From positions 62,344-126,343 of the forward strand of contig CALXKK010000001.1 in assembly GCA_944388935.1 (NCBI GenBank): a DNA stretch of 64,000 nucleotides, read 5' to 3'. This document shows positions 23,778 through 54,526 of the stretch, in pieces. Each line of letters opens with the position of its first letter. Positions within the stretch are counted from its first letter, which is position 1. The position numbers and the translations under genes are program-made. Origin of the DNA: an uncultured Clostridia bacterium. GTDB taxonomy: Bacteria; Bacillota; Clostridia; TANB77; CAG-508. The notes below the pieces were generated by a model. The model was not told where the DNA came from, ran no database searches, and saw only the letters and a program-made list of their open reading frames with translations.

Positions 23778-23794
23778 AAGGTTCACATAAAAAA

Positions 23795-31536: not shown

Positions 31537-31559
31537 AGTTTTTACTTCCTTAATTAAAT

Positions 31560-33059: not shown

Positions 33060-33074
33060 ATTATCACCTAAATT

Positions 33075-34583: not shown

Positions 34584-34665
34584 ATTTTCTCCTATTCTTT
34601 TGTAATTGTGATTAATTATTTTTTTCTATACAATCATATAATTTTTTCTATAAATATTCAAGGTC

Positions 34666-36222
34666 TCATCTAATTTTCTTTATGCACAAATCTTCTATAT
34701 TTACAACTTTCGTTGCTAAATCTTTATAAAAGCTCGCTTCGTGTGATACTAAAATAACTGTACCTTTAAATTCTGTTAACGCCTTTTGTAATTCTTCCTT
34801 TGTATCTGCATCTAGATGGTTTGTTGGTTCATCGAGAATTAGTAAATTACATGGTTTTAATATTATTTTGCATAATTTTACTTTTGCCTGTTCTCCTCCA
34901 CTTAAAGTAGCTATTGGTTGCATAACATGTTCTTTCTTAATTCCACAATCTGCTAGATGCTTCCTAACTTGTTTTTGTGTTAGTTGTGGGAATTCTCTAG
35001 AAATAATATTAAGTGGTATGTCTTCTGGATTTTCCCATCTTAAGTCTTGCTCATAATACCCAATACTCTTTATAGTTTCCGAAAATTTAAATGTTCCAGA
35101 AATAGGTTTTATTTCTCCTAAAATAGTTTTTAATAAAGTGGACTTACCAATACCATTAAAACCTGTTATTACAAGCTTTTCTTCATTTTGCACATCAAAT
35201 TTCATCTTAGGAAGTAAAGGATAATAGTATCCAACTTCCAAACCATTTACCTCCAATATCACTTGAGCTGTAGATGGAATACAATTAAAACGAAAATGAG
35301 GTTTACTTGTAAATGTAGGTTTTTCTATTTTCTCCATTTTCTCTAACTTTTTCTCTCTACTTTTTGCCATTTGAGCAGTGGATGCTCTTACCTTATTTTT
35401 GGCAATATAGTCTTCTAATCTTTTTATTTCTTTTTGTTGTGAATTATATTGTCTTATATAATCTTCTCTTAATAACTCCTTTTGCTTTAAAAAGCTAGAA
35501 TATGTACCTTTATATTTCTTTATTTTGTTAAATTCTATATCACAAATACAAGTTGTAACTTTTTCTAGAAAATCAAAATCATGTGATACTATTATAAATG
35601 CTCCTTTAAAACTAGTTAAGTATTCAGATAGCCATTCTACATGTTCTTTATCTAGGAAGTTTGTAGGCTCGTCCAACACCAAAACTTCAGGATTTTGCAA
35701 AAGTAATTTAGCCAGAATTACTTTTGCTCTTTGACCTCCACTTAAATTTTTCAAAGAAGTATCTAGCCCCAATGCTGTTATTCCTAAACCGCTTGCAACT
35801 TTTTGTATTGTACTATCTATTGCATAAAAATTTTTTTCTTCTAGCAATTCTTGATATCTAGATACTTTGTTTAATATATTTTCATTATAATTTTCTGCCA
35901 TTTTTTCGTATAATTTGTTTAAATCATCATTTATTTTGTATAAATCTTTAAAAGCTGTTCTTAAATAATCAAAAATTGTTTGGTCTTCATCAACAATTGC
36001 ATACTGGTCTAACTTACCAATTGTAATACCATTCTGCCATTTTACAGTTCCTTTATCTGGCAAAATTTCTCCTAATAAAATTTTAATTAGAGTACTTTTA
36101 CCAGCTCCATTTTGACCTACAATCCCCATGTGTTCGCCTTTATATAGTTCGAAAGAAGAATCTTTATACAATAATTTTTCTCCAAATGAATGCGATAAAT
36201 GTTCTACCTCTAATAGTGCCAT
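34666..36222 (-). CDS. ABC-F family ATPase (two tandem NBDs, no TMD)
   Basis: Two Walker A motifs (GQNGAGKST, GFNGIGKST), two signature motifs (LSGGQ..., LSGGEQ), and an inter-domain linker with a Lys/Glu-rich helix. Confidence 0.8.
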   Translation of the reverse strand: MALLEVEHLSHSFGEKLLYKDSSFELYKGEHMGIVGQNGAGKSTLIKILLGEILPDKGTVKWQNGITIGKLDQYAIVDEDQTIFDYLRTAFKDLYKINDDLNKLYEKMAENYNENILNKVSRYQELLEEKNFYAIDSTIQKVASGLGITALGLDTSLKNLSGGQRAKVILAKLLLQNPEVLVLDEPTNFLDKEHVEWLSEYLTSFKGAFIIVSHDFDFLEKVTTCICDIEFNKIKKYKGTYSSFLKQKELLREDYIRQYNSQQKEIKRLEDYIAKNKVRASTAQMAKSREKKLEKMEKIEKPTFTSKPHFRFNCIPSTAQVILEVNGLEVGYYYPLLPKMKFDVQNEEKLVITGFNGIGKSTLLKTILGEIKPISGTFKFSETIKSIGYYEQDLRWENPEDIPLNIISREFPQLTQKQVRKHLADCGIKKEHVMQPIATLSGGEQAKVKLCKIILKPCNLLILDEPTNHLDADTKEELQKALTEFKGTVILVSHEASFYKDLATKVVNIEDLCIKKIR

Positions 36223-36231
36223 TGTCTCCTC

Positions 36232-37266
36232 CTACTCTGATTGTCCTCTCGTATATTTTAATTTTACTAAATCAACTAAATTAACGCATTTTTTCCATGC
36301 CAATAAAAATTTACCTTTAAATTTAACATATAATATCGCAACTAATAATGAAGCCAAAAATATAGCAATTTGTATTGTATTATCTAATATTTTGTTACTA
36401 GCAGTTACAAATTTATTAAATATATTTATAAACATTAAATGCAATATATAAATATATGTTGAATATTTTTTTCCAATAACTGCTAACACATTTTCATCAC
36501 TTACTTGCTTTGCTTGAACTACAAATAAAAATACTGCTACAGCAAAAAATGTTGTGCTAATATAAAGATCTCCTATTGCATCTTTACGAGCAGCATTTAA
36601 GAATTGTTCTTCTAATACAGTGGTTAATGCAAACACAGGTATTAAAATTGCTAATTTTCTTAGCGGAAATTTTTCTACTAACTTTTCTTTGTTTTCATAT
36701 AATAAATTTCCAATTAAGAAATATGGCAAACCTATAAATAAGAAATTCCTCATATAAATAGGAGCATAATCTTTATTAAATAATACTATTGAATACTCTC
36801 CAAATATAATATTCGTTACTAATAATACTGGAATTAAAAAATACAAATATTTTCGTTTATTAAATTTATCAGCAATATACGCAATAATTAGAACATATAA
36901 AAGTGCATTTAAATACCATAAATGGAAGGCAAAAGGCGAGCTATTAAATAAAAGTCCGTTAATTATGTCTTCTTTATTTGGTACTTCTGCCTTGCCATTC
37001 ATAATTATTCCTAAAACAAAATATAAAAAATTAGCCAATATTATTAGGACTAAAACCTTTTTCATTTGCTTTAGTGGTGCTTTTGAAGTTTTATGATAAA
37101 AATATCCTGTTATCATAAAAAATATTGGAACAGCAATCCTACATAGAGGTGTTATTATGTCACCAAGTTTATCTTTATAGGAAATATGAATGCATATAAC
37201 TAAAAATGCACATATTGCTTTTACTACATCTAAATTATTTTGTCTTTTGGCTTCTACTTTTTCCAT
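36232..37266 (-). CDS. Acyltransferase family 3 (membrane-bound O-acyltransferase)
   Basis: N-terminal ...LDVVKAICAFLVICIHIS and ~10 TM helices, typical of Acyl_transf_3. Confidence 0.65.
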   Translation of the reverse strand: MEKVEAKRQNNLDVVKAICAFLVICIHISYKDKLGDIITPLCRIAVPIFFMITGYFYHKTSKAPLKQMKKVLVLIILANFLYFVLGIIMNGKAEVPNKEDIINGLLFNSSPFAFHLWYLNALLYVLIIAYIADKFNKRKYLYFLIPVLLVTNIIFGEYSIVLFNKDYAPIYMRNFLFIGLPYFLIGNLLYENKEKLVEKFPLRKLAILIPVFALTTVLEEQFLNAARKDAIGDLYISTTFFAVAVFLFVVQAKQVSDENVLAVIGKKYSTYIYILHLMFINIFNKFVTASNKILDNTIQIAIFLASLLVAILYVKFKGKFLLAWKKCVNLVDLVKLKYTRGQSE

Positions 37267-37351
37267 TTTTATCCCTCGTTTTTTATCTTTTAGCTACTAT
37301 ACTATACCATTTTTTTTATATTCTTTCAACACATATTGACCTCTTATCCAA

Positions 37352-38314
37352 TTAAACTTCCTTCCAATCAATTAACTTTATCTGATTAGAAATAAAGTTT
37401 TCATTATTATCTATTTCTTTAAATAAATCTGTTGATAAATATTTTTTATTATCATCTGCAAACACTGTAACTACCGGCTTATCTATGCTTTCACTTAATA
37501 AAACACTTCCCAAAAAATTCGCTCCAGAAGAAATTCCAACACCTAATCCTAAATCTTTAGATAACTTTCTAGACATATTTATAGAATCATCATCATTTAC
37601 TAATATAATTTCATCTATTGCCTTTCTATCTATTAAATCTGGAACAAATTCATCTCCAATTCCTTCTATTTTATGTTCTCCTAATATTACTCCTTTAGAA
37701 ATAATGGGCATTTTATCCGGCTCTATAGCAACTATTTTCAAGTCGTTAAATTGTTCTTTCAATCTCTTTCCTGTTCCCATTAAAGTTCCACCTGTTCCTA
37801 CTCCCGAAACAAACCCATAAACTTTTTCTGGAACTTGATTTATAATTTCATTTCCGGTTGTCTCATAATGTGCTAAAAAATTATCTTTATTAGAAAATTG
37901 ATTTGATAAAAATCCATTTACTTCCTTTGCCAATTTCTTAGCCTCTTCTATGCATCTTACAAAACCGCCATCTTCTTTTGAATACAGAATTACTTTAGCC
38001 CCATAATTTTCCATTAATTTTATTCTTTCTTTGCTAACCCAATCCGGCATAAAAATATATACTTTGTGATTATAAAGCTCACCAATAGCGGATAATGCAA
38101 TTCCTGTATTTCCACTTGTTGCTTCAATTATTGGCATTCCTTCTTTTAACTCTCCTCTTTTTTTAGCATTATTTATCATATAAAGTGCAACTCTATCTTT
38201 TATGCTTCCTGTTAAATTATAATATTCCAATTTTGTATAAATATATTTTTTCTTACCCATATATTCATAATCTATTCTTATCATTGGTGTGTTACCAATT
38301 GTTTTTTTCACCAA
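37352..38314 (-). CDS. Cysteine synthase / PLP-dependent fold-type II family protein
   Basis: IGNTPMIR, SIKDR (PLP lysine), TSGNTG and GxGTGGT motifs. Confidence 0.75.
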   Translation of the reverse strand: MVKKTIGNTPMIRIDYEYMGKKKYIYTKLEYYNLTGSIKDRVALYMINNAKKRGELKEGMPIIEATSGNTGIALSAIGELYNHKVYIFMPDWVSKERIKLMENYGAKVILYSKEDGGFVRCIEEAKKLAKEVNGFLSNQFSNKDNFLAHYETTGNEIINQVPEKVYGFVSGVGTGGTLMGTGKRLKEQFNDLKIVAIEPDKMPIISKGVILGEHKIEGIGDEFVPDLIDRKAIDEIILVNDDDSINMSRKLSKDLGLGVGISSGANFLGSVLLSESIDKPVVTVFADDNKKYLSTDLFKEIDNNENFISNQIKLIDWKEV

Positions 38315-38337
38315 TTCTACATTCCCCCCTATACAAC

Positions 38338-38377
38338 AAAAAAACTATATACTTTTATTGTAGTATATAGTTTTTTT
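38338..38377. terminator. Bidirectional hairpin terminator downstream of the 1115-aa gene
   Basis: AAAAAAACTATATACT-tttattgt-AGTATATAGTTTTTTT. Confidence 0.5.
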
Positions 38378-38407
38378 ATTATAATATGTTTCATGTGTTT
38401 TTTACGT

Positions 38408-38420
38408 GAACTTTAGGGAC
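38408..38420 (+). repeat. Partial REP-like repeat, copy B (GAACTTTAGGGAC followed by local palindrome TAGGGAcaaTCCCTA)
   Basis: 5' half of the family consensus only. Confidence 0.4.
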
Positions 38421-38425
38421 AATCC

Positions 38426-41400
38426 CTATCTTTCATCTCTTTCATCACTTTCTTTTCTTATTTCCTCCATAACAGATTTCACCATCTGTCGTTTTTCTAC
38501 ACTTAATGATGACATATCTACTTGTGCATCTTGTGCTCCTATTTGTTTTAATGCTTTCTTCACTTGATAACGTATATGATTTTCCGCTTTTTGCTTTTGC
38601 TCCTCGGTTAACCCCTCTCTTAATGGTGAAGATAAAACATTTCCGATTTTTATTTTTTCATCATCTTGACTATAAATAATAGCCATTCTTGCAGTAGCCA
38701 ATACCCTCGTAGTATTTGGGTCAAGCCCATATTCTTCCGCTACAGTATTCATAAGTCTTTCAGATTTTTTAAGTTGTTCATCATCACCTGTTTCATTAAA
38801 ATATACTGTATTATTGTTTTCAGATTCTCGGTCCATTCTTCTTAATGTTAATAGCACTCTATCTGTCATATTTGTACTATCATACAAAGGAATATCATCT
38901 TGATGAACATATAAGTTTTCTTGCTTAGATTCTACAATTCCATCCCTTTCTGCAATTGTATATTGAATTTTTGCATCAGTATATGGATTTGGTAATCTTC
39001 TTGTAGATTTCACACCTACTGTATCACTTTCTTGATGTATAGTTTTATCCGATTTTATTGCACTCGCAATATCATTATATCCTAAGCCAATTGTTACTTT
39101 GCCTAATACTAATGAATCATATTGTTCTTGCGTAATATCTCCTTTTTTTAACAATTCTTGATATACTCTTTTGTCTTCTTCCATTAAATCTTGTGCTGCT
39201 TTTTTATAGACGCCTAAAACCTCTGCTGCTAAGCCTTTTCTTCCTTTATCAGGATGTTCTGTTTCATATAACCTAAAAATCCTATTGGGTATTTCTATAT
39301 TATCAAAACAGCCTGTGTATTGATTTCTCCAAAACCAACTTTGTGCAACCAATCTTCCTTCTTCATCTTTTACACAAAAAACTCTACCATCAGGGGATAC
39401 AACGCTATGCTCCATACTTGTTTGGCCAGCTCCATGTATTTCTTGGCAACAATCTGTAAGTGTTCCAATTGTTAATGCTAGTGGGTCATCACATCTAAGC
39501 ATTTCGTATGTATACCCATTAGTTTTTCCTTGTATTCTGGGAATACTAGAAAAATCCCTAGTTTCACCTTCATTAAATAGTTTTTGTATAGCTTCAAAAT
39601 CTTCTTGAGAATATCCAGCTATTTTGGCTTGTTCGGCAACTCCCTCATTACCAATATCAATATTAGAATACACTATACTTCTTATATATGCTTGTGCTAC
39701 GTCCCAAGTTAATTTCCTACCAGCATTTGTTCTAACAATATCCTTAAATTGTCTTTGCATTGTAGCAATATCTTTACTATATTCAGGATTTGACAATATT
39801 TCGTCACAATTTTCTACAAAAAATTTAACAAAGTCCGGATTATATTCCATTTTAAAAGAATCAAATATCTGATGAGCTTTAATTGGAGTTAAGATTCTGG
39901 GAAAATCTGCTTCCTCTAATATTCCTCTAACTGTCTTTGTTCTATTCTTGTCACTTTGTGCATTAAATGATAAATTATACTTTCCATCTTTTCCTATTTT
40001 ATATGCTTGTTCTAAAATTGTTTGTAGCTCTTTATTATTTCTATTATAGCTAATTGATTGCATTACTTGTTCATATTCTTCGGCAGATAAATCCTTTGGA
40101 AGTCCTGCAAATAATTCCATTGTCCTATTAAATCCTTCATTATCACCTTGGAATACTCCCATGCTATACGCTGCTTTTAAAAGTGCTGCTTTACCATCGT
40201 TATTACGATTATAAAAATCTATGGTCATTAATTTAGACCATTTTTTCCCATTTGCCAAGAAACTATCAATTTCTTCTTCTGGGAAATTTATCATAACAAC
40301 AAAATTAGGTAAAAATCTTCCACCTGTTGCTTTATACCAACTTTCCAAAGTGCTAACTCTATGGTAACTTACCATTTTATCAATAGTTACTGGATCTCTT
40401 GCTCCTAATTTCATTAATGTATCACTATCAAATTTTCTAAACAATTCGTCATAATTTGGCATAAATGCTAGCCTTATATCTTTTCCTTGTAAAAATTCTT
40501 TCCATTCCGGATATCTCTTTATTAATTCGAAATTTAATTTGATACTAACGTTAGTATCATGTAATTTATTATTATAATACAATGTTTTTAATAATTCTGG
40601 TGCCTCATTATCCAAAAACATCTCCGGACGTCTTTTCTTAAAAAAGTCAGGAATTGTTTCGATAAAAGGAGATTTTCTAGTTAAAATATTCTCCTCTATA
40701 TTTTGCTGTATTGCTCTTTCTTTATCTTGCTTACTTTGACCTTCCACAAAAATTCCAGCGTTAACACCTTCCAAAAATTCTCCGTACTTTTCTGCAAAAT
40801 ATATTATCTCTTGCTCTGTAAGTTTTTCCCACATTGGTCTTACTTCTCTTTGTCTTTGACCATATCTTAGTGGTTTGCATTTTGTATTTCCAAATCCTAC
40901 ACCAATATCTTTTGACAATAATATCTCCCTTAATTGTGGGTTCTGCCTTACATCTTCAAAAGTTAAATCTCCTGAATAAAACTTATTTCTTAATTTTTCA
41001 TCAACCTCTTCTGGAAGAAATAAGTCTGGATGCTTTTCTTTAAAACTTGATGGTAATTCTTCAAAATATACCATTCCCTTATCTTTTATTTCTCCATATA
41101 TAGCATCTTCAATTTTTTCTCTAATACTTTCAAGTGTAAAATCTCTTGAAATGGACAATGATATACTATCTAAGCATTTTCCATAGTCAGCACAAATCCT
41201 TAAGAACTCCTCTTGACCTATTTTTTCTATAACATATTTAGCCATATTTACCTTTTTTCCTTGTAATATTTGTATAAGTTCTGGATTTTGTCTGATATCC
41301 TCAGCACTCATATGTCCTCTATAAAATTTATTTTTTATTGAAACATTAACACCATCTATAAATATATCAGGATGCTCATCTCTAAAACTTCCTGTTATAA

Positions 41401-41773
41401 AATCATAATCAGCGAAAACTCCTGTTTCTATACCTTGCCCTTTTTCTCTTGCATGAAGCAGAATTTCATACATTCTATTTTTAAAATCATCATAGCTTAA
41501 TTCTCCAGAATTAATATCTTTTGAATTTTCTTCATTGCCTGCATATGTATTTGAATCAGAAATAGCAAACACTGTAAGATATATATCATTCCCCCATAAT
41601 GTATGAGAAAACATCCCATTAGTTTCTTCATCCAACCTAATTATATTATCTATTCCATATTTTGTTATAAATCTTCTTTTACTCTCCGAATGTGGTCCCA
41701 TACTGATAGAATCAATAGGAATTTTTTCTATTTCCAGTAATTCTTTAATTCGGTGTAAATCTAATACTTCCAT
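38426..41773 (-). CDS. Large (1115 aa) repeat-containing intracellular protein of unknown function
   Basis: No signal peptide or TM segment. Three ~45-aa internal repeats (xHPD[IL]F...NKFY.G.[LM][ST].ED[IV]RQNP.L..IL). Central Cys/His-rich block LRCDDPLALTIGTLTDCCQEIHGAG...RVFCVKDEEGR. Acidic coiled-coil tail. AAGGAG SD. Confidence 0.5.
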   Translation of the reverse strand: MEVLDLHRIKELLEIEKIPIDSISMGPHSESKRRFITKYGIDNIIRLDEETNGMFSHTLWGNDIYLTVFAISDSNTYAGNEENSKDINSGELSYDDFKNRMYEILLHAREKGQGIETGVFADYDFITGSFRDEHPDIFIDGVNVSIKNKFYRGHMSAEDIRQNPELIQILQGKKVNMAKYVIEKIGQEEFLRICADYGKCLDSISLSISRDFTLESIREKIEDAIYGEIKDKGMVYFEELPSSFKEKHPDLFLPEEVDEKLRNKFYSGDLTFEDVRQNPQLREILLSKDIGVGFGNTKCKPLRYGQRQREVRPMWEKLTEQEIIYFAEKYGEFLEGVNAGIFVEGQSKQDKERAIQQNIEENILTRKSPFIETIPDFFKKRRPEMFLDNEAPELLKTLYYNNKLHDTNVSIKLNFELIKRYPEWKEFLQGKDIRLAFMPNYDELFRKFDSDTLMKLGARDPVTIDKMVSYHRVSTLESWYKATGGRFLPNFVVMINFPEEEIDSFLANGKKWSKLMTIDFYNRNNDGKAALLKAAYSMGVFQGDNEGFNRTMELFAGLPKDLSAEEYEQVMQSISYNRNNKELQTILEQAYKIGKDGKYNLSFNAQSDKNRTKTVRGILEEADFPRILTPIKAHQIFDSFKMEYNPDFVKFFVENCDEILSNPEYSKDIATMQRQFKDIVRTNAGRKLTWDVAQAYIRSIVYSNIDIGNEGVAEQAKIAGYSQEDFEAIQKLFNEGETRDFSSIPRIQGKTNGYTYEMLRCDDPLALTIGTLTDCCQEIHGAGQTSMEHSVVSPDGRVFCVKDEEGRLVAQSWFWRNQYTGCFDNIEIPNRIFRLYETEHPDKGRKGLAAEVLGVYKKAAQDLMEEDKRVYQELLKKGDITQEQYDSLVLGKVTIGLGYNDIASAIKSDKTIHQESDTVGVKSTRRLPNPYTDAKIQYTIAERDGIVESKQENLYVHQDDIPLYDSTNMTDRVLLTLRRMDRESENNNTVYFNETGDDEQLKKSERLMNTVAEEYGLDPNTTRVLATARMAIIYSQDDEKIKIGNVLSSPLREGLTEEQKQKAENHIRYQVKKALKQIGAQDAQVDMSSLSVEKRQMVKSVMEEIRKESDERDER

Positions 41774-41830
41774 ACACTACTCCTTCTTGTGAATTTTAGA
41801 GGCTGTTGGAAACTCTAATTTAGTTCCTTC

Positions 41831-42811
41831 TTATAACAAATTTGGATATAGCATTTTCTTTTTTCTTAAAAGCAAATCTATATCTATATTTACAACATCT
41901 TTTATTAACGGACTGCTATTTACAGAAATTGTATCTGTTTTTACTTCTCTTAAAAATTTTGATGCATTTTGTTTGTCTTCTGTGAATATGCTACTGCTAT
42001 ATCCTGATGTATTATAGTTTATTTGTGCTATAGCTTCGTCTATATCCTCTACTTCTATAAAATCCTCATCATCTTCTAAAGGTAGTTTTAAACCACTTTT
42101 TACATATACATCTATATTTCTATTTTCTTTTAATATCTTTTCTATAAACTCTAAATGAGTTATATCTTCTATATACAAATCAAATTTATTGTAGCCTTTA
42201 ACAATTACCTCTATATTTGAGATTCTTTTTATCTTGTTTTGAAAGTCCCTATTTCCAACTGCTATTACTTTGTTTATACTTATATTGTTAGAAAGTAATT
42301 CTTCTAAATTGCTTGTATAAATTATTTGTACCAAGTTTTTATCAACTTTATATGCTTCTAAAACTCTTTGAACCAATATTAATATCAATTCATTCGTAGC
42401 TTTCATATAATCTGACTCACTTGCTATTATTAATGCATTATGAGTTAATATTGCTTTTAAAACTAGTTCTAATAAGCAATATGTATTTCCATCATATACT
42501 AAGCAAACTGTTCCTAGATTATCTGTTTGCTCGCCTTCTATGTAATTATTTTCGTTTTTATGCATATAAATAACTTTTCTATATGAATCTTCTATATCTG
42601 CCAATTTATCTTTTAGGATATTTATAATTTCGAAATCTAAAGCAAAACCATTATTATTTTTTACATCTATCTCGTTTGCTTTTTTTATACTTTCTGCATC
42701 TTCTTGTATTAAGTCAAAAATGCTGCTTACAATCTTCTTTGCATCAACATTCATATCCATATTAGTGTAAGACATAGTAGCATTTCCCAATATTTCTCTA
42801 ATATTATCCAT
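41831..42811 (-). CDS. Degenerate gamma-glutamyl-phosphate-reductase (ProA)-like / ALDH-fold protein, probably non-catalytic
   Basis: GTVCLVYDGNTYCLLELVLKAILTHNALII and SSIFTEDKQNASKFLREVKTDTISVNSSP resemble ProA segments, but the catalytic-Cys region is absent. Start moved to the ATG at 42811 (AGAGGTG SD). The track start is GTG. Confidence 0.4.
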   Translation of the reverse strand: MDNIREILGNATMSYTNMDMNVDAKKIVSSIFDLIQEDAESIKKANEIDVKNNNGFALDFEIINILKDKLADIEDSYRKVIYMHKNENNYIEGEQTDNLGTVCLVYDGNTYCLLELVLKAILTHNALIIASESDYMKATNELILILVQRVLEAYKVDKNLVQIIYTSNLEELLSNNISINKVIAVGNRDFQNKIKRISNIEVIVKGYNKFDLYIEDITHLEFIEKILKENRNIDVYVKSGLKLPLEDDEDFIEVEDIDEAIAQINYNTSGYSSSIFTEDKQNASKFLREVKTDTISVNSSPLIKDVVNIDIDLLLRKKKMLYPNLL

Positions 42812-42835
42812 ACTATCTTGCACCTCTTTCTTTCT

Positions 42836-42857
42836 GAACTTTAGGAACGAATCTTAG
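42836..42857 (+). repeat. Degenerate REP-like repeat, copy C (GAACTTTAGGAACGAATCTTAG), abutting the RBS of the ProA-like gene
   Basis: Matches the consensus at ~17 of 22 positions. Confidence 0.35.
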
Positions 42858-42932
42858 CTATGCATATAGCCCACTCTAACGAAATTAAAAATTTCTAGAG
42901 TGGCTTAAAAGGTTCGGATTTTATGTTAATCT

Positions 42933-43892
42933 TTAAAAGTCTCTATCAAAACCTTCATCATTAATTTCTTGAGAAACCTTCTTGCCCCTAGAAAAAATGC
43001 CTCTTAAACTTGATTGAAGTCGTGTTAAATTTCCAGTACTTCTTCCAAACGCAATTTTTTGTACTTCTCCTCCTCCAAAACCGCTAGGAGAATTTGCTGT
43101 TGCTCTTACACTTCTAGTTTTACCTTCATCTAAAAATCTTGACTTCTCTTGAACCATATCTATAAACTCTTCAAAAGTATAGACCTTAGAAGCATCCAAC
43201 CTAGATTCTTGCATCCATTTTTGTACTCTAGCTTTATTCTCCGGTGATGTAAAAATGCCAAATAACTGCTCGGGATTTCTTTTTAGGTTTACTGAGCCCA
43301 TTGCGTCCATTATTTTAAGCTTTTCATCTTGCTTACCTTTTGGTAGAAGAGCAAAAACACATCCGCAAGGCAATGAACGTTCATATGCAGTTAAATCTGT
43401 ATAGAATGCTACTGTTCTATTCATAGATCTCACTGTTGTAGCCGAAATTTCTCCCTTAGGATTTGTAGATTTTACAAATCCATTATACCTATCTGCAGAA
43501 GAAGAAATATTTCCACTTCTAATAATTTGCTCCGCATAATAAATTGGAGTACCATGAAATCTTAAATCCAATTTATCTGAAATAACAGCATTAAGTCTTG
43601 CTGAAAATGTTCTAAACTGATAAATTCTATAATTCATATCTTCAGCATTATTAGGTCTAATAAATTTAGCAGTAAGTTTTACTTCTTCGATATTATATTT
43701 CCATTTTTCAACTTCCATATATGCTTCCATATACTCTACAGATCTTCTACCATACCTTCTTCTAGTTACATTTAAATCTTGCATAGCATCTGCTAAGCTT
43801 TTATTATATCTATTAAATTTAGAATTTAGGATTTCTCTATCCTTCTCATATAATTTTTGTGGATCTGTTTCTCTCCTTATTCCATTCTTCAT
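42933..43892 (-). CDS. Hypothetical protein (~320 aa); N-terminus of the ORF-track model is REP-derived
   Basis: The track ORF begins MLDNINIIFELLRSVPKVQSS, which is the in-frame translation of REP copy D. The likely true start is ATG 43892 (MKNGIRRETD) or 43910. No family recognised. Weak R/S-T-N/E-Q pattern only. Confidence 0.4.
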   Translation of the reverse strand: MKNGIRRETDPQKLYEKDREILNSKFNRYNKSLADAMQDLNVTRRRYGRRSVEYMEAYMEVEKWKYNIEEVKLTAKFIRPNNAEDMNYRIYQFRTFSARLNAVISDKLDLRFHGTPIYYAEQIIRSGNISSSADRYNGFVKSTNPKGEISATTVRSMNRTVAFYTDLTAYERSLPCGCVFALLPKGKQDEKLKIMDAMGSVNLKRNPEQLFGIFTSPENKARVQKWMQESRLDASKVYTFEEFIDMVQEKSRFLDEGKTRSVRATANSPSGFGGGEVQKIAFGRSTGNLTRLQSSLRGIFSRGKKVSQEINDEGFDRDF

Positions 43893-43917
43893 TTTATCTT
43901 TACACCTCATCTGTTTT

Positions 43918-43953
43918 GAACTTTGAACTTTGGGGACGGACCTTAAAAGTTCA
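43918..43953 (+). repeat. REP-like repeat, copy D (extended form TTGAACTTTGAACTTTGGGGACGGACCTTAAAAGTTCAAATATTATGTT)
   Basis: Near-identical over ~50 nt to copy E. Confidence 0.6.
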
Positions 43954-43989
43954 AATATTATGTTAATATTATCTAACATCTATTTTTAT

Positions 43990-44289
43990 CTACTTTAATC
44001 CGTTCTCATTCCAATGTTCCTTAAGTTCTTCTTTTTCATCATCTGTCGCAATATAGCTATAATAAATTAATGCTAATAAATCCTTGGCTGTTTCAGAAAT
44101 ATTTTGTTCACTTAAATCCTTATTAAAATCTAATTTTACTATGATAGTAGCTTTACTTGCCAAATCTTTTAATTTTAATATAAAATTTTCAGGAATTTTC
44201 ATAGTAATTTCTGGATCTAAATATTCTAAAATACATAATACTTCTTGGGCAGCATTATAAATTTCCGTTTGTTCCATCTTTAGCTTCAC
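43990..44289 (-). CDS. Hypothetical small protein (99 aa)
   Basis: ORF with SD. Acidic, helical. No motif recognised. Confidence 0.4.
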   Translation of the reverse strand: MKLKMEQTEIYNAAQEVLCILEYLDPEITMKIPENFILKLKDLASKATIIVKLDFNKDLSEQNISETAKDLLALIYYSYIATDDEKEELKEHWNENGLK

Positions 44290-44312
44290 TCCTTTTAGAT
44301 AAATCTAAAATT

Positions 44313-45365
44313 TTATTTCTTTTCCATATTTTTTGTTTCTAAAAGTAATTTATCAAAATCTGATGTTATTTTTTGATGTTTGTTAAATTCGTTATATTCC
44401 TTTTCTGCCTTTTCCTCAGCCATTCTTCTAGAAATTTTTCCATTATCCTTTAATATATCATATTTTCTAAATTCCAAGAATTCATTAACACTTTTTGCAA
44501 ATTCCTCCATTGTGAATGTGTTTTCTCTTTCTACTAAATCTTCTATATAATCAAAATAACCAGATATCGCTCTTTCTAGTCTTTTTATTTGTTTTTCTTC
44601 TAAATAGTTTTTTGCTATCATTACATCTGATTTTAAAATTCTTCCATCTGGTGAGTTCTTCCATGTTGTTAATCCCATATTTTCTTTAGTATGATCTGCT
44701 TTTTGATATATGATTTCTGCTGCTGTATTTCCTGTTATTGCATAATGAAATTTATTTTGTATCATAGCATAAAATTTCTTTGTAATCTCTGAATCTTTAT
44801 CATAATCAATACTGCATTCTGCAAATATATCTGTTATCTGTTGCCAAATTCTTCGTTCGCTTGTTCTAATTGAACGAATTCTTTCTAAAAGTTCTTTAAA
44901 ATAATCTTTTCCAAATTTAGGTCCATTTTTTAATAATTCATCATTTAACACAAAACCTTTTTTTATGTATTCTTTTAATGTATTAGTTGCCCAAATTCTA
45001 AAGTCAGTAGCTTCTTTTGAATTAACTCTATAACCCACTGCAATAATAGCATCTAAACTATAAAAAGTTAATTCTCTTGAAACACTTCTATTTCCTTCTT
45101 TTTGAACTGTTCGAATTTTTCGAATAGTTCGATTTTCCTCTAATTCATGAGTTTCAAAAATCTCTTTTAAATGATAATTTATAGTATTTACTTCAACATT
45201 AAATAATTTTGACATCGATTTTTGAGTTAACCAAAAATCTTCATTGTCGTATAATACTTCTACAGATATACTTTCATTGTTTTTACTTTGATATATAATT
45301 AAATCTCTTAAATATTCTAATTTGCTCACCATTTCACACTCCTTTTTTTGTGTTTTGTCATTCAA
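44313..45365 (-). CDS. RhuM-family (virulence protein RhuM-like) protein
   Basis: FWLTQKSMSKLFNV...IRKIRTVQKEGNRSVSRELTFYSLDAIIAVGYRVNSKEATDFRIWATNTLKEYIKKGFVLNDELLK is a close match to the RhuM-family core. Confidence 0.75.
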   Translation of the reverse strand: MNDKTQKKECEMVSKLEYLRDLIIYQSKNNESISVEVLYDNEDFWLTQKSMSKLFNVEVNTINYHLKEIFETHELEENRTIRKIRTVQKEGNRSVSRELTFYSLDAIIAVGYRVNSKEATDFRIWATNTLKEYIKKGFVLNDELLKNGPKFGKDYFKELLERIRSIRTSERRIWQQITDIFAECSIDYDKDSEITKKFYAMIQNKFHYAITGNTAAEIIYQKADHTKENMGLTTWKNSPDGRILKSDVMIAKNYLEEKQIKRLERAISGYFDYIEDLVERENTFTMEEFAKSVNEFLEFRKYDILKDNGKISRRMAEEKAEKEYNEFNKHQKITSDFDKLLLETKNMEKK

Positions 45366-45375
45366 ATTTTCCCTC

Positions 45376-46416
45376 CTATTTTTTTATTAAATCTTTTGAA
45401 TAATAATACATATCAACACATTGCATATTTCCATCCCATAATTCTTCATTATAATTATCTATAAAGAAATTTTTTATTGTCTTTTCATATTTATCAAATC
45501 CTTGTTTAACATAGAATGGTATGTTATTTTCTGTTGTTCCTACAATCATATTTTTATATCTTGGCTTATAGTTATCTGCCAAATATTTTATCATTTTTTT
45601 GCCATATCCTTTGCCTCTGTAGTTTTCTTTAGTTGCTATGTTTTTTAACTCTACAGTATCATTATCAACCTTTGTTACCACAGAAACGCAAACAGGTTCA
45701 TCTTTATATGTTAATACAAACAAGTCCCCATCAGCTAAGTACTTTCTAACTATCTCTTCGCTTGGATCTGCCTCAAGAAGTAACTCTAAATATTGCTCCT
45801 TATTTTCTCTTTCTTTTCTTATATTAATAGAAGGGTTCACAGGTAAGAACTCAAAACCTTCTGGTAATTTTGGTGGTTGGAAATCCTCACCTAAATATCT
45901 ACCTCTCTCGGAAAAGATGCAACCACAATACTTTTGAATATACAAGCCTAATTCTCTGGCTTTTGCTTGTCCAACTTTAAATCCAACTCTAAAATCTCTA
46001 TACAAAAAGTCTAAACCATATTTTTTCGCAATCACTTCACCTAATTTTTTTATAACGTCATGTTTTTGATATGGACTTACTAAAAGTGTTGTAGTAATTG
46101 TATCAAATCCATGCTCCTTCGCATACTTTGCTGTTTGCTCCAAACGAACTGGATAACAATAATCTTGGCATCTTGTTTCCAAAGAATCTACTACATTTTT
46201 GCAAAACTTATCTAAGCCATAATCATCTTCGAAAATGGCTTCCACATTTATGCTCTTAGTATATTCTTTTAAGCAATCTCTTCTTGCCTTATACTCTGTA
46301 TATGGATGAATATTAGGGTTAAACCAATAAACTGTTGGCTCTATTCCTTCATCTCTTAGTGAATCTATGCAATATACACTACAAGGTGCACAGCACGTAT
46401 GCATTAATAATTTCAT
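45376..46416 (-). CDS. Fusion protein: epoxyqueuosine reductase QueH (DUF208) N-terminus plus GNAT acetyltransferase C-terminus
   Basis: MKLLMHTCCAPCSVYC is the hallmark QueH Cys cluster, with further Cys (CQDYC, CGC). The C-terminus ...ELKNIATKENYRGKGYGKKMI is a GNAT acetyl-CoA-binding motif. GGAGGAG SD lies 4 nt upstream of the ATG at 46416. The track ORF's first 39 aa are REP-derived. Confidence 0.65.
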   Translation of the reverse strand: MKLLMHTCCAPCSVYCIDSLRDEGIEPTVYWFNPNIHPYTEYKARRDCLKEYTKSINVEAIFEDDYGLDKFCKNVVDSLETRCQDYCYPVRLEQTAKYAKEHGFDTITTTLLVSPYQKHDVIKKLGEVIAKKYGLDFLYRDFRVGFKVGQAKARELGLYIQKYCGCIFSERGRYLGEDFQPPKLPEGFEFLPVNPSINIRKERENKEQYLELLLEADPSEEIVRKYLADGDLFVLTYKDEPVCVSVVTKVDNDTVELKNIATKENYRGKGYGKKMIKYLADNYKPRYKNMIVGTTENNIPFYVKQGFDKYEKTIKNFFIDNYNEELWDGNMQCVDMYYYSKDLIKK

Positions 46417-46429
46417 TTTTCTCCTCCTT

Positions 46430-46465
46430 GAACTTTGAACTTTAGGGACGGACCTTAAAAGTTCA
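46430..46465 (+). repeat. REP-like repeat, copy E (extended form), 3' flank of the RAYT gene
   Basis: GAACTTTGAACTTTAGGGACGGACCTTAAAAGTTCA followed by a partial second copy (GTGAACTTTTAAA). Confidence 0.6.
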
Positions 46466-46587
46466 AATATTATGTGAACTTTTAAATCAGTACCATTCCA
46501 ATCATTCCTATTTACCAATATTATTCCTTGCATGAATTCAGGTTATATCAGTAATTCATATACCTGCTCTTGACTTGTTCATCAACA

Positions 46588-47355
46588 TTATTCGTGTATC
46601 AATCTATGTATTTTTAATCTATTAACACCTATAATCTCTGCTATTTCCTTCTGTGTGAATCTGTATTTTTTATTCATAATTATAGATATTTCCTTTAAAT
46701 ATTTATTATCATATTTTAAAACGCTAATATTAATAATATTCTTTTTTCGTAAGAATTCATCTAGCACTTGTAATTTCAAATTATTTTTATCTTTTAAGTC
46801 TTCGTCATCCATAAAATTATAGTCAGTTGAATCTTTTATCAATATTGTATTTAAATCAATATTATATGTACTCAAAATTTTTAACACTTTATTTTTGTTT
46901 ATCAAATATTCTTTATTCTTAAATTCCTTATAACTTGAGAATTTGTATTCTGATTGATTGTTGCATATTTTCGCTTTTACCGGATTATTATGAATATAAT
47001 GTATACAATTTATCAAATATTTCCTAGATATAATTTCCTCAGACTTAAATCTATCTCTAAACACATATCCACATCTATCGTGATTTTTATTATAGTAGAT
47101 GGCATAACTTGTATTAACCTTTTTCATTAATTTAGAAACCAAATTTATATCTTGAGAATATACTAAAAAATGAGCATGATTATTCATAATACAGTATGTA
47201 ACTATGTATACATCAAAACTCTTTAGTTTTTCCTTTATAATTTTTAAATATACTTCGACATCTTTTTCTTTATTGAATATATATTCTCTATTTATCCCTT
47301 GTATCATAATGTGTATAAATTTAGAATTTATTTCTTTTCTTGCTCTTCGTGGCAC
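46588..47355 (-). mobile_element. REP-associated tyrosine transposase (RAYT; IS200/IS605-like Y1 HUH transposase, COG1943-type) with C-terminal HTH extension
   Basis: MPRRARKEINSKFIHIMIQGINREYIF N-terminus, HUH motif NHAHFLV, catalytic-Tyr helix IHYIHNNPVKA, C-terminal HTH FTQKEIAEIIGVNRLKIHRL. Flanked by inverted REP copies E and F. Confidence 0.7.
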
Positions 47356-47580
47356 GCAAAAACCTCCTTTAAAATATTAATTTTTGCCCCCACTTTTAAC
47401 TTAAAATTAATTTAAATTGACATTAATCTTATAAGTTTTTTCTTATGTGATGTATTATACCAAATTTATCATCTTATGTAAACATTAACCAGTTTATTAA
47501 CCATAATATTCCATTCTCTTGTTATTCAACAATTTTACCATTCTATTACCACATCATCATTATTTTTTATGTAACCCGAT

Positions 47581-47609
47581 GAACTTTTAAGGTCCGTCCC
47601 TAAAGTTCA
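47581..47609 (-). repeat. REP-like repeat, copy F (inverted), 5' flank of the RAYT gene; overlaps the last codons and stop of the membrane-protein gene
   Basis: GAACTTTTAAGGTCCGTCCCTAAAGTTCA is the reverse complement of the consensus. Confidence 0.6.
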
Positions 47610-49087
47610 TAAATGTCGAAAAAGTTTACTGTTCCTATCTTTTCTAAGTTTTCCCTTACGTATTTTATTACTTCCGTTGGTGTTTGCCAATTTAACGCAA
47701 TTTTATTATTTTTTATTAGTATTACAGCATTCTTCATATTTTTTATTCTTTCAATTTGTCCTTCTTCGCTGTTTTCTCCTAAATTTCCTTTTAAAAACAT
47801 GTCAAAGTCTTTATTGTATCTGTCTAGTGGTATCATATATACCGCAGCTTCTGAGTCTAAAATGTATACATCTTTATTTTCCTCTTGTATATATGCATCT
47901 ACTTCTATAATTCTATCCTGTAAAGAGGAAGTTATTGGAATGTTAGAAAAATGTTTTAATACTGATTTATCCGATGATGCATATAAATATATATCGTTTA
48001 TTGATTCTAATATTAATAATCCTATAAATGATATTGTTATTATGTTCATAAAATGTTCTATAAATATCGATACTTTTATGTTTTTTATTTCTTGAATACT
48101 TTTGCAAATATAATACAAAACCACCATAACTGTTGGTAGTGCAGCTATTCTAAAGTGTATATCATCTGATATTGGATATACCATAATAAACTGAGCTAAT
48201 GAAAATACAAATAGTATTAAATATTGAATATTATTATGTATTTTTCTTTGCTTCATATTTACTAAATTTGCAATTAACAACACAATTAAAGTAATTGGTA
48301 CTATTAACGCTACAAAAGCCATAAAATCCTTGCCACGTATAAGTTTTAAATATGATATTTTGTTTTGGAATGTTCCTATTCCTAAAACACAATAATCTAT
48401 AAAGCTTGACATTGAATTTGTTAAAAGTAAATATATAACAAAAATCACACATGGAATAAAAACTCCCACAACTCTGTATAAAACTGCTTTTGCGGTTTCT
48501 TTATCTTTTTTTTCTAGCAATAAATATAAAACAGTTATAGCAGAAATAATTATTCCTGTACTTTGCTTAAACAAAATAGTTATCCCAGCAAGTAAACCTA
48601 TTAAAATATTATATTTTGCACCAAAATTTCTATATTTAAGTTCAAAATAAATAAGTAATAATGTAACAAATAAAATTGCATAATTATAATCTATATAAAA
48701 ACTATCTTTTATAAATAAAAACAATAAAGCTGATGAAAATACTGACCATTTAGTATTTAATTTTAGTTCTTTCAAAATTTTATACGCTACAAAAATTATT
48801 CCAGCTCCTAAAAATGTAGAAACAATTCGCATAACAAATAATTCTTGGCCAAATAATTTTAAAATTCCACCAAGAATAAATGATAATAATGGTGTTTGCA
48901 ACATATTAAAATCTTTATATGGTAATAATCCATTTGATATATTTCTTGCGAAATTAAAATTCCATATTTCATCAAGATTTTCTAAATTTCTAGGCAATAC
49001 TGTAGCTGCAAATAATATTATTGTTATAATTATAAAAGATATATCTATTAATCTAGCTTTTAACTTTGCTTTAGTTTCCTCTTTCAC
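47600..49087 (-). CDS. Polytopic membrane protein, possible GT-C-like glycosyltransferase
   Basis: ~12 TM helices. N-terminal loop has NLENLDEIWNFNFARN and LPYKDFNMLQTPL, reminiscent of GT-C DE / HPPL-type motifs. Confidence 0.4.
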   Translation of the reverse strand: MKEETKAKLKARLIDISFIIITIILFAATVLPRNLENLDEIWNFNFARNISNGLLPYKDFNMLQTPLLSFILGGILKLFGQELFVMRIVSTFLGAGIIFVAYKILKELKLNTKWSVFSSALLFLFIKDSFYIDYNYAILFVTLLLIYFELKYRNFGAKYNILIGLLAGITILFKQSTGIIISAITVLYLLLEKKDKETAKAVLYRVVGVFIPCVIFVIYLLLTNSMSSFIDYCVLGIGTFQNKISYLKLIRGKDFMAFVALIVPITLIVLLIANLVNMKQRKIHNNIQYLILFVFSLAQFIMVYPISDDIHFRIAALPTVMVVLYYICKSIQEIKNIKVSIFIEHFMNIITISFIGLLILESINDIYLYASSDKSVLKHFSNIPITSSLQDRIIEVDAYIQEENKDVYILDSEAAVYMIPLDRYNKDFDMFLKGNLGENSEEGQIERIKNMKNAVILIKNNKIALNWQTPTEVIKYVRENLEKIGTVNFFDIYEL

Positions 49088-49106: not shown

Positions 49107-50111
49107 TTATTTATTGTATTCTATATTTAAATGTTCATATGCAGCAGGAAGCGCAATTCTTCCCCTTGGAGTACGAGATATAAAACCTATTTGCATTAAA
49201 AATGGTTCATACACATCTTCTATAGTCTCTATTTCCTCTCCTGTTGTGGCAGCTAAAGCTTCTATTCCAACAGGACCTCCTGCATATTTATTTATAATTG
49301 TAAGCAATATATTTCTATCTGTTTGGTCTAGTCCTAAATCATCTATTTCTAGCTTATTTAGAGCAATTTTAGCCATTTCTAGATCTACATCACCATTTCC
49401 TAAAACTGATGCATAATCCCTTACTCTTTTTAAAATTCTATTTGCAATTCTTGGCGTTCCTCTAGACCTTTTTGCAATTTCCATACTTGCTTTATCGTCT
49501 ATATTTACATTTAAAATTCCAGCAGATCTTTTTACAATTTTTTGTAAATCTTCTGGTTCATACAATTCCAATCTCTCAACAATTCCAAATCTGTCCCTTA
49601 AAGGAGTGGTTAAAGAACCCGCTTTTGTCGTTGCACCTATTAATGTAAATTTAGGCAAGTCCAATCTTATTGACCTAGCACTTGGTCCTTTTCCTATAAT
49701 TATATCTAAAGTATAATCTTCCAATGCTGGATATAATATTTCTTCTACACTCTTATTTAATCTATGAATTTCATCTATAAATAGGACATCAAATTCTGAT
49801 AAATTAGTAAGTAATGCTGCTAAATCTCCTGGCTTTTCTATTGCTGGTCCTGATGTAATTTTTATATTTGAATTCATTTCATTAGAAATAATATTTGATA
49901 ATGTAGTTTTACCAAGTCCTGGAGGTCCATATAAAAGTACATGGTCTAAAGGCTCCCCTCTTTTTTTGGCAGCTTCTATATATACTCTCATATTTTCTTT
50001 AACCTTAGTTTGTCCAATATATTCATCAAGTGTTTTAGGTCTTAATGAATTTTCTAATCTATTTTCTTCATCATTTATTAATTCCGGATTAATTAAATTT
50101 TCTTCGTCCAT
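49107..50111 (-). CDS. ruvB: Holliday junction branch-migration helicase RuvB
   Basis: [13 protein letters not shown] Walker A, FIDEIHRL Walker B, sensor motifs, winged-helix C-terminus. Confidence 0.95.
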
Positions 50112-50302: not shown

Positions 50303-51187
50303 TTAAACCCTAATCCACTCTTCTACCCATTCATCAGGTATCTTTAAATTTCCTTTTCCACAACCCATGTCTATATTAGGTTTATTTTTTCCGTGGTAAT
50401 CACTTCCACCACTTTTATAATATTTTCTTTCATTACATAAATTTACAAGATATTGAATCTGCTCTTCGAAAAATGTACTATGCATACATTCAATTCCATC
50501 AATATCGTATTTATCTAAGATATCATCTATTAATTGATACTTATCTTTTGCCCATTTATAGATAAATAAATGAGGTAAAAATACTAATCCTCCACACTCC
50601 TTGATAATCTTAACAGCTTCTTCTGTGCTAGGATAATCAGGCGTTTTATCTATATATAATGGATAATTTTGGTCTCCACAATATTTTTTAGAGAAAGCAT
50701 CAAATTCAGCCCAAAAATCTGCTGGAACCTTGGCCTGATTTTCTGGATGTTTTTTTATTTCGTTATAAATAGCTACACTTCCCCAACCATTTTTTGCATC
50801 CCAGTCGATTTTTTCTTTTGGATCCATTACAAGCCCCATTTGTACAGCCTTTTCATATTGAATGTTAAAATATTTTGTCTGTAACTTTTCTCTAGATTTA
50901 TCTTTATAATATTCAACTGTCCATTGTTTCATTTTCTTTGGGTCAAATTGATATCCTAATACCTCAATCAAATTTTTTCCATAACTACATTTTATCTCTA
51001 TTCCCGGAATTATTTTCCCTTTAAAATATTTATGTACATCTATTTTTTCTAGTTCTTCATATCCATTACAATTATCATGATCTGTAATAGAAATATAATT
51101 TAAATTTTTTTCTTGGGCCTTTTTTAATAATTCTATTATAGAATCTGACCCATCTGAATTTGTAGAATGCATATGTAAATCAATCAT
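50303..51187 (-). CDS. PHP-domain phosphoesterase (histidinol-phosphatase-like)
   Basis: MIDLHMHSTNSDGS and ISITDHD metal-binding His motifs of the PHP superfamily. Confidence 0.7.
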   Translation of the reverse strand: MIDLHMHSTNSDGSDSIIELLKKAQEKNLNYISITDHDNCNGYEELEKIDVHKYFKGKIIPGIEIKCSYGKNLIEVLGYQFDPKKMKQWTVEYYKDKSREKLQTKYFNIQYEKAVQMGLVMDPKEKIDWDAKNGWGSVAIYNEIKKHPENQAKVPADFWAEFDAFSKKYCGDQNYPLYIDKTPDYPSTEEAVKIIKECGGLVFLPHLFIYKWAKDKYQLIDDILDKYDIDGIECMHSTFFEEQIQYLVNLCNERKYYKSGGSDYHGKNKPNIDMGCGKGNLKIPDEWVEEWIRV

Positions 51188-52097: not shown

Positions 52098-52297
52098 TTC
52101 TTGCTATCTCCTACATATTTTTTTATAACTTCCATATTTTCTTTATTTATTTCATCTCTATCCAAAATTAGTATCTGTAATTCTTTTTTTATTTTTGGAT
52201 CCTGAGTTTTTTCATATTCTATGGATAGTTTTCCAACTTCTCGTGCAATCTTTTCTCGTGCAATCTCTAATCCAAATTCATTTAATAATAAATCCAT
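52079..52297 (-). CDS. Candidate epsilon-type antitoxin (72 aa helical protein) overlapping the zeta toxin start
   Basis: MDLLLNEFGLEIAREKIAREVGKLSIEYEK... GGAG SD lies 8 nt upstream of ATG 52297. Its 3' end overlaps the toxin start by 19 nt. The track start (TTG 52327) is less likely. Confidence 0.45.
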   Translation of the reverse strand: MDLLLNEFGLEIAREKIAREVGKLSIEYEKTQDPKIKKELQILILDRDEINKENMEVIKKYVGDSKKWNKMN

Positions 52298-52448
52298 TTT
52301 TTTACTCCATTTCTTACTTTTCGACAATAATTATAGCATTAAATTTAGTTTATTACAATTGTTTTGTTAAAAATACATTTTCCACTAATGTCATATTTTA
52401 TATATAAAATGCTACTCTATTTTTTCGATATATACTTTTACAATAATA

Positions 52449-53500: not shown

Positions 53501-53563
53501 TGCAATTCCCCCTAATTATCTTTAAATACTCCGCCTTTTTGTATATTTTCAAAACTTACTATT

Positions 53564-54517: not shown

Positions 54518-54526
54518 ACTAATGCT

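Follow-up and report, generated by a model that had tools for sequence, protein, structure and literature searches.

The stretch analyzed here, referred to as the window, comprises 64 kb of DNA from an uncultured Clostridia bacterium (GCA_944388935.1, contig CALXKK010000001.1); all coordinates are window positions. Its G+C content is ∼28% throughout, and nearly every gene is encoded on the minus strand. The subject of the analysis is the neighborhood of ruvB, where the original prediction for this DNA had seen an accessory segment of unusual genes, punctuated by a repetitive extragenic palindromic (REP) sequence and including the gene for a REP-associated tyrosine transposase (RAYT). We consider it likely that this segment is part of a species-specific variable neighborhood of the chromosome, which is built on a ruvB-queH-polA-SLT backbone and houses a resident REP/RAYT system.

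Read in the direction of transcription, the locus begins with ruvB (49107-50111, minus strand; NCBIfam RuvB, 523 bits), the conserved upstream anchor. On the same strand follow the genes for a GT-C membrane glycosyltransferase (47600-49087; Pfam PMT_2, 42 bits), for the RAYT-like Y1/HUH transposase of 255 amino acids (aa; 46588-47355), for a QueH-GNAT fusion (45376-46416), for a RhuM-family protein (44313-45365), and for a small helical protein of 99 aa (unk99; 43990-44289) together with its partner unk348 (42933-43892). Next come a ProA-like protein of the aldehyde dehydrogenase (ALDH) fold lacking its central segment (41831-42823) and its partner, an 1115-aa protein consisting of helical repeats and a conserved C-terminal domain of a divergent GNAT fold (38426-41773; domain at approximately residues 740-900). 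A CysK-like enzyme of the pyridoxal phosphate-dependent PALP family, assigned by profile searches, is encoded at 37352-38314 (minus strand). The conserved downstream anchor is polA (26407-29112, minus strand; Pfam DNA_pol_A, 561 bits), which is followed in the backbone by the SLT gene (25717-26286).

Every gene named in the original prediction was present, as confirmed with Pfam and NCBIfam profiles, and the zeta-toxin gene placed near 51.2 kb was located upstream of ruvB at 51180-52097. The reported lack of ruvA and of queA-tgt beside ruvB also held, as neither could be found anywhere within the 64 kb; in this lineage the queuosine gene queH adjoins ruvB, where many Firmicutes carry queA-tgt. 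Altogether, what had been noted about gene content and repeats was confirmed in part. The limits set for the segment (38.4-47.6 kb) were too narrow at the low side, the species-specific interval being 29135-45365, from queH down to polA.

The palindromic repeat and the RAYT gene

The repeat is a 30-nucleotide (nt) imperfect palindrome, TGAACTTTAGGGACGGACCTTAAAAGTTCA, of which three copies with no or one mismatch start at 43924, 46436, and 47580 (0.00 expected by chance); its half-site pattern gave nine matches, as opposed to 0.28 expected. Two of these copies are embedded in 51-nt units on the plus strand that are 96% identical to each other, one between unk99 and unk348 (43917-43966, core 43924-43953; hairpin of −9.5 kcal/mol, z = −3.2), the other between the RAYT gene and the ribosome-binding site (RBS) of queH (46429-46478, core 46436-46465; −10.8 kcal/mol). 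The third, perfect copy (47580-47609, minus strand; −12.7 kcal/mol, z = −2.9) is located upstream of the RAYT gene and overlaps the final codons of the GT-C gene. Degenerate copies, both on the plus strand, are found at 42836-42925, where the palindrome is split by a ∼50-nt insert forming a hairpin of its own (member of repeat family D1, 65% identity), and at 38407-38435 (−9.4 kcal/mol), overlapping the 1115-aa gene at its stop codon. The hairpins of lone copies are modest in stability (−9.4 to −12.7 kcal/mol, z about −2.6 to −3.2); two inverted copies at 23741-23824, 14.6 kb away from this cluster, form a REPIN-like doublet with a long hairpin (−33.5 kcal/mol, z = −6.75). In all, the window holds five good and two degenerate copies of its REP variant, each of them intergenic or at a gene end.

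Between 38.3 and 49.1 kb, five of nine gene junctions carry a REP, compared with one of 40 outside (Fisher p = 3.7 × 10−4). Thus, the repeat itself and its clustering are real, but it does not separate each transcription unit, as had been claimed: the junctions unk99/RhuM, RhuM/queH, and GT-C/ruvB, only 10-23 bp long, are devoid of it. The spacer 41774-41830 had been considered as a further copy and was dropped because it gave no folding signal (z = +0.26).

The RAYT gene is present once in the window. Its product matches the Pfam family Y1_Tnp with 43.4 bits (cut-off 23), and both the HUH motif (HAHFLV) and the tyrosine motif (YIHNNP) can be read in the translation, which also contains a C-terminal helix-turn-helix (HTH) extension of ∼120 aa. 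The gene is bracketed by inverted REP arms (46436-46465 and 47580-47609) that are 100% complementary over 30 nt; perfectly complementary inverted REPs on both sides are the hallmark arrangement of RAYT genes. The protein family comprises 1474 homologues of uniform size (∼255 aa) that are annotated as "transposase" only, and most of its clusters were found on few contigs.

For comparison, 80 related loci (denoted by L numbers) were fetched from species representatives with RuvB as the query. All of them stem from metagenome-assembled genomes (MAGs) of uncultured Clostridia of the "Clostridium sp. CAG:567/571/465" and Caccovivens type; the sole complete chromosome among representatives of the related lineage is 1.55 Mb in size, and the G+C content of the lineage is ∼28%. 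In L022, the RuvB of which is 79% identical to that of the window, a RAYT homologue (48% identity) occupies the same site between the GT-C gene (marked there by a weak PMT_2 match) and queH, and the order is ruvB, repeats, the PMT_2-like GT-C gene, repeats, RAYT, an inverted repeat, and queH. As RAYT and REPs occupy the equivalent position in so distant a species, both are resident and vertically inherited, the RAYT as a domesticated transposase rather than the accessory cargo for which it had been taken.

A census of the repeat that allowed for substitutions only had made it appear species-specific; this was discarded once a census tolerating insertions and deletions recovered related variants in L022 and L024. 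Both carry the variant TGAACTTTAGGGACGTTCCTTAAAGTTCA. No REP copy was found in the loci of the remaining ∼75 species, including the RAYT-less sister species L097, so that the presence of the REP parallels that of the RAYT across the species compared. Public metagenomes were also scanned with a degenerate REP pattern, which matched at least 120 stretches, 80 of which were analyzed as loci. They contained at least 109 exact copies of sister variants, only one of which, among the matches listed, lay deep inside a long open reading frame (ORF), and these variants were spread over at least 29 separate contigs of similar coverage from one sample. The matches listed held sister variants only and none of the window's own. 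With copies on many contigs and nearly all of them outside ORFs, the REP family is dispersed and extragenic in the related organisms.

Near-identical copies of 30-51 nt at unrelated junctions (family D1, 96%) indicate copying and not convergence. This argues against the palindromes being ordinary operon punctuation, that is, attenuators or mRNA-stabilizing RNA hairpins that by chance came to lie beside an IS200-like gene. Such a function would agree with the location of all copies between co-directional genes, with their modest folding energies, and with two of them (43917-43966 and 46429-46478) being positioned directly 5′ of an RBS; a RAYT scoring below the NCBIfam equivalog cut-off and a repeat lacking the GTAG tag would not be surprising either. 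However, the hairpins are not trailed by a U-tract, an intrinsic terminator was predicted for none of the three good copies, and chance proximity is hard to reconcile with perfect inverted copies around the RAYT gene, with a REP that follows the RAYT across species, and with a sister variant spread over dozens of contigs. Operon punctuation is thus a very improbable explanation of the repeat; it should be noted that this role and mobilization by the RAYT are not mutually exclusive. By analogy to known REP/RAYT systems, the enzyme probably spreads REPs by cleaving and joining single strands at the hairpin. The repeats have accumulated mostly in the intergenic spacers closest to its gene.

The ruvB-queH-polA backbone in related species

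Downstream of ruvB, queH is found in 44 of the 80 related loci (species; among L007-L058, L070, and L084). The distance is no more than 130 bp in 17 of these loci, and in 13 related species polA and the SLT gene follow queH at a distance of 0.2-6.7 kb. The interval between ruvB and queH (slot A) ranges from 7 bp to 8 kb across ∼44 species and, where the two genes are apart, is filled with unrelated genes; that between queH and polA (slot B) ranges from 0.2 to more than 9 kb. Slot A of the window measures 2.7 kb and contains the GT-C and RAYT genes, and slot B measures 16.2 kb (29135-45365). Judged from gene order, the conserved backbone is thus ruvB-queH-polA-SLT with two variable slots. The QueH part of the fusion protein is unambiguous (201 bits against PF02677, cut-off 23.5) and, being encoded in the conserved backbone of ∼44 species, is core rather than the unusual cargo it had been listed as. 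The fusion of QueH to GNAT was found in ∼10 species; a literature search returned nothing on it.

The remainder of slot B (29135-38314, minus strand) encodes, according to Pfam, an M20 peptidase, an aminotransferase, two GtrII proteins, an ABC-F protein, an Acyl_transf_3 protein, and the CysK-like enzyme. In the flanks of ∼40 related species, none of these genes is present. The slots of other species contain mostly PMT_2 or Polysacc_synt-type proteins, as well as large proteins without Pfam match and assorted enzymes. Since glycosyltransferase-like genes prevail there, the region looks more like one of variable envelope glycosylation than like a dedicated defense island. A homologue of the GT-C gene of slot A sits at the same position in L097 (74% identity, split), and further ones were found in L008, L033, and L039.

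Envelope glycosylation genes are also unusually dense elsewhere in the window (31560-34583, 5634-7109, and 52490-60796), the set comprising two GtrII, two YfhO, two GT2, and two PMT_2-type GT-C proteins, an Acyl_transf_3 protein, and an epimerase. This density suggests a region of surface-glycan diversification. A further protein of 856 aa, encoded at 61089-63659, has an SH3_3 domain and five lectin repeats of the ricin-type beta-trefoil kind; the DNA repeats of its gene, ∼447 nt in length (62576-63992) constitute the direct-repeat families D2, D3, and D5.

The closest relatives in the comparison are the sister species L097/L098, which share 95.5% (RuvB), 86.5% (PolA), and 92% (ABC-F) identity with the window. 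Their gene order is ruvB, a split PMT_2 gene, queH, epsilon/zeta, PHP, unk348, an unk99-like gene, CysK, ABC-F, two GtrII genes, polA, and SLT. Common to both are therefore GT-C, unk348, unk99, CysK, ABC-F, and the two GtrII genes, and of the two only the window species has the RAYT with its REPs, the GNAT fusion, RhuM, the pair of ProA-like and 1115-aa proteins, and the pair of aminotransferase and M20 peptidase. Comparison of synteny with related genomes, by which the segment was to be judged, accordingly gave a divided answer: the flanks of ∼40 species lack the block, yet about half of its genes recur in the sister L097. The genes for an 82-aa epsilon-like protein, a zeta-toxin-domain protein, and a PHP-domain protein (50303-52327) form a conserved triad, which is located upstream of ruvB in the window; in the sister species (L097, 7940-9961), its place is between queH and unk348.

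Conservation and change among strains

Contigs encoding an identical RuvB or CysK were regarded as conspecific, which yielded eight loci from at least six samples; for PolA, a search for the identical protein found no record. Every conspecific contig covering the stretch exhibits the same gene order. Polymorphism in the presence of the block among strains, which an island of accessory genes would lead one to expect, was thus not found. Insertion or rearrangement at this site, as proposed in the original prediction, is borne out by slots that vary between species (∼44 compared), but not by any strain-level variation of the block. The site is, in other words, a hotspot of gene flux between species and not a strain-variable island.

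The only differences between strains are an IS110 element upstream of ruvB and a large serine-recombinase element at the QueH|GNAT junction. The former, an insertion of the DEDD_Tnp_IS110 family in the interval between PHP and ruvB, is present in L001, L003, L004, and L005 (8674-9612) and absent from the window and L002. The latter is inserted exactly at 45907/45909, the boundary of QueH and GNAT (L001, from ∼14204 onward; L087, 1-2405), with an attachment (att) core of approximately GAG. Its cargo comprises genes for ParA/ParB, for SpaA-type pilins, and for two large serine recombinases, of which one has a DUF4368 domain. As the element supplies a GNAT-coding end of its own, insertion regenerates the QueH-GNAT fusion and leaves the old GNAT part behind as a 185-aa ORF. 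Between the strain bearing the element and the window, identity is ∼100% from ruvB to the REP at 46.43 kb and then ∼88% across queH.

The ratio of nonsynonymous to synonymous substitution rates (dN/dS) between strains is 0.13 for the ProA-like gene, 0.09-0.18 for the 1115-aa gene, 0.06-0.13 for unk348, 0.1-0.2 for unk99, and ∼0.3 for RhuM. The block evolves under purifying selection (dN/dS 0.06-0.3), which indicates that its genes are functional; the notion that the ProA-like and big genes are decaying relics of mobile elements was ruled out by their values of 0.09-0.18. In the ProA-like gene, dS between strains (versus L002, L087, and L089) amounts to 0.13-0.14, ∼10-fold more than in its neighbors (0.01-0.02), and the excess is concentrated at ∼42055-42555. 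This divergent stretch has the appearance of a recombination patch. The big gene, too, has a different 5′ end in L089 and L093, where it encodes a form of 1146 aa.

Taken together, slots ruvB/queH and queH/polA have probably gained, lost, and reshuffled genes between species time and again. In the species of the window, slot A holds the GT-C gene and a resident single-copy RAYT with its own inverted REPs, and slot B a mixture of envelope-modification genes, metabolic genes, and three modules (RhuM; unk348/unk99; the 1115-aa and ProA-like proteins). The whole arrangement is by now fixed in the species and kept by purifying selection.

Several observations weigh against parts of this account. 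Against the NCBIfam model REP_Tyr_transpos (NF047646), the RAYT reaches 56.8 of the 80 bits required by the cut-off. REPs are defined in part by a tetranucleotide tag, GTAG (or CGTC), conserved beside the palindrome (PMC3733652), and no GTAG/CTAC or CGTC/GACG tag adjoins the REP copies of the window; the survey of tagged REPs names no Firmicutes (PMC3733652). The window's REP variant was seen seven times, all in the window and its conspecific contigs. As to rearrangement, the REP at the start of queH coincides with one breakpoint between strains, and the patch in the ProA-like gene coincides with none. REPs as general recombination breakpoints were not adopted for this reason; the single coincidence gives a weak hint that they may be involved in rearrangement. 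Finally, the genomes compared are mostly MAG contigs covered with 10-kb flanks, and genes missing from a slot may sit elsewhere, so that for metabolic genes "accessory" is inseparable from "relocated".

RhuM, the two gene pairs, and comparison with known systems

RhuM matches its Pfam family with 360.4 bits (cut-off 33.7) and, over its full length, the PADLOC candidate PDC-S05 with 510 bits (E = 6 × 10−154). Among the 10 proteins subjected to PADLOC it gave the sole strong match; zeta matched DndF weakly (E = 0.0014), and the others had no match. RhuM is thus a candidate defense gene, in line with the statement that RhuM-family genes are frequent in defense and virulence islands. RhuM is encoded downstream of queH also in L009, L013, L016, L019, and L041. 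In L013 it is 95% identical to that of the window, despite a RuvB identity of only 81%, which argues for horizontal exchange at this site. In the same locus (7791-13652), a QueH-GNAT gene, a split RhuM-like gene (51% identity), a second queH-like gene (53%), and the RhuM gene (95% to that of the window) are arranged in tandem, which looks like repeated integration of cassettes downstream of queH.

The first of the two gene pairs consists of unk348 and unk99. The longer apparent ORF of unk348 starts with translated REP sequence; its true length is 319 aa. The protein is composed of an N-terminal helical hairpin or coiled coil of 100 aa and an alpha/beta domain that possibly has an ADP-ribosyltransferase (ART)/Tpt1-like fold; neither Foldseek against the PDB nor a search of PDB sequences by profile yielded a match. 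Homologues of unk99 directly follow those of unk348 in L097 (67% identity) and L104 (44%), and the ART-like family has about 95 members with a small partner.

The second pair comprises the 1115-aa protein and the ProA-like protein. The latter reaches 65 bits against NCBIfam proA (TIGR00407; cut-off 317), and when it is aligned to solved ProA enzymes, nothing in it corresponds to their residues ∼237-322. We take these residues to be the segment holding the catalytic cysteine, and the protein is probably non-catalytic. Neither the 1115-aa protein (Pfam and NCBIfam) nor 10 remote relatives gave any sequence-profile match. By its fold, the conserved C-terminal domain is a divergent GNAT domain, and the family of GNAT-fold repeat proteins numbers 1634 cluster representatives. 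Besides homologues of ∼1640 aa, the family contains short forms of 1143-1156 aa. The idea that the ProA-like gene is the detached N-terminus of the ∼1640-aa homologues was abandoned, as there is no similarity; the window protein is a short form. ProA-like genes abut the homologues of the big gene in L095 and L099 (68-70% identity) and in L102 (40%). In L095, the pair and a large serine recombinase reside inside a split gene of the 5-enolpyruvylshikimate-3-phosphate (EPSP) synthase family, which indicates that the pair is carried on a small integrative element. Both pairs have, in the window, the opposite order to that found elsewhere. LRR_5 proteins are encoded near the second pair in L099 and L102 and near unk348/unk99 in L104. 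In L099, an unrelated genome, a RhuM+Fic fusion (3943-4890) is encoded 3 kb upstream of the second pair.

Some of these features would be expected of a horizontally acquired defense or virulence island downstream of ruvB, in which RhuM, both pairs, and zeta protect against phages or mobile DNA. RhuM is PDC-S05 and belongs to a domain proposed to be a toxin in restriction-modification (R-M) and defense loci (PMC3710099), its identity in L013 exceeds that of RuvB, and the pair in L095 travels on a serine-recombinase element; the RhuM+Fic gene near the pair in L099, the adjoining epsilon/zeta-PHP triad, and the att site at the QueH|GNAT junction point in the same direction. Other findings speak against an island. 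Its G+C content (0.26-0.32) equals that of the remaining window, the window contains neither tRNAs nor Rfam families, and no integrase-type domain was detected with Pfam and NCBIfam profiles among the proteins scanned. Conspecific strains do not differ in its presence, half of it (GT-C, unk348, unk99, CysK, ABC-F, and GtrII) recurs in the sister species, the slots of other species hold mostly glycosyltransferase-like genes, and RhuM stands alone in its strong PADLOC match. An acquired defense island is thus unlikely, and the accessory-island interpretation is partly supported, a defense or toxin function of single modules being conceivable within the variable neighborhood favored here.

Functions can only be inferred for both pairs. 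A search of PHROGs returned nothing useful. They might be undescribed two-component conflict systems (toxin/immunity or anti-phage) that serine-recombinase elements carried into the queH-polA hotspot, the latter being shaped by a clostridial REP/RAYT system without GTAG tag that seeds recombination-prone hairpins; we regard this combination as doubtful. The pairs are nevertheless the part of the locus most deserving of experiments, and they represent two sizeable uncharacterized families with structural leads, the GNAT-fold repeat proteins and the ART-like proteins.

Among known systems, RhuM (PF13310/PDC-S05) is one that the window protein matches strongly and over its full length. In R-M and defense loci, RhuM has been suggested to be a toxin domain and is frequently joined to Doc (PMC3710099); in contrast to these contexts (Doc/Fic fusion, R-M operon), RhuM of the window stands alone. 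Compared with enzymes of the ART fold (Tpt1/KptA, H-Y-E ARTs), unk348 carries an extra N-terminal helical hairpin and is without sequence or Foldseek match. GNAT acyltransferases include toxins of toxin-antitoxin systems. The GNAT-fold domain of the 1115-aa protein differs from them in that it has no GNAT match at the sequence level, ends a repeat protein of the 1100-1900-aa type, and is partnered by a degenerate protein of the ProA/ALDH fold instead of a small antitoxin.

As a whole, the locus is for the most part a variable chromosomal region of a common kind, and none of the findings overturns current understanding. With chromosomal hypervariable regions and integration hotspots it shares conserved flanks (ruvB, queH, and polA) around species-variable slots, the mixture of glycosyltransferases, toxin-like genes, and remnants of mobile elements, and a serine-recombinase att site at the edge of queH. 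It differs from them in that its content is fixed within the species of the window and in large part common to the sister species, and in having no compositional signature and, in this strain, no integrase. The ruvB-queH-polA backbone with its two slots constitutes a handy comparative landmark for a poorly known lineage.

To our knowledge, work on REPs and RAYTs has so far been conducted almost wholly in Proteobacteria. With the REP/REPIN-RAYT systems of E. coli and Pseudomonas (PMC5581495, PMC2817692, PMC3116915), the window shares a single Y1/HUH gene with HUH and tyrosine motifs, inverted palindromes flanking it, and a palindrome that recurs in extragenic spacers, including a REPIN-like inverted doublet; its RAYT is syntenic in another species, and the repeat sequence has co-diverged. 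The host, in contrast, is a low-GC (28%) member of the Clostridia, the repeat is AT-rich and without GTAG tag, its copies are concentrated around the RAYT gene, and the RAYT possesses the HTH extension of ∼120 aa and scores below the REP_Tyr_transpos cut-off. Group 1 RAYTs have been reported in Clostridia, with flanking repeats of low abundance (PMC5581495). The locus described here adds a clean and checkable case of a REP/RAYT-type system in uncultured low-GC gut Clostridia, in which a syntenic RAYT and its co-diverged repeat can be followed in two species.

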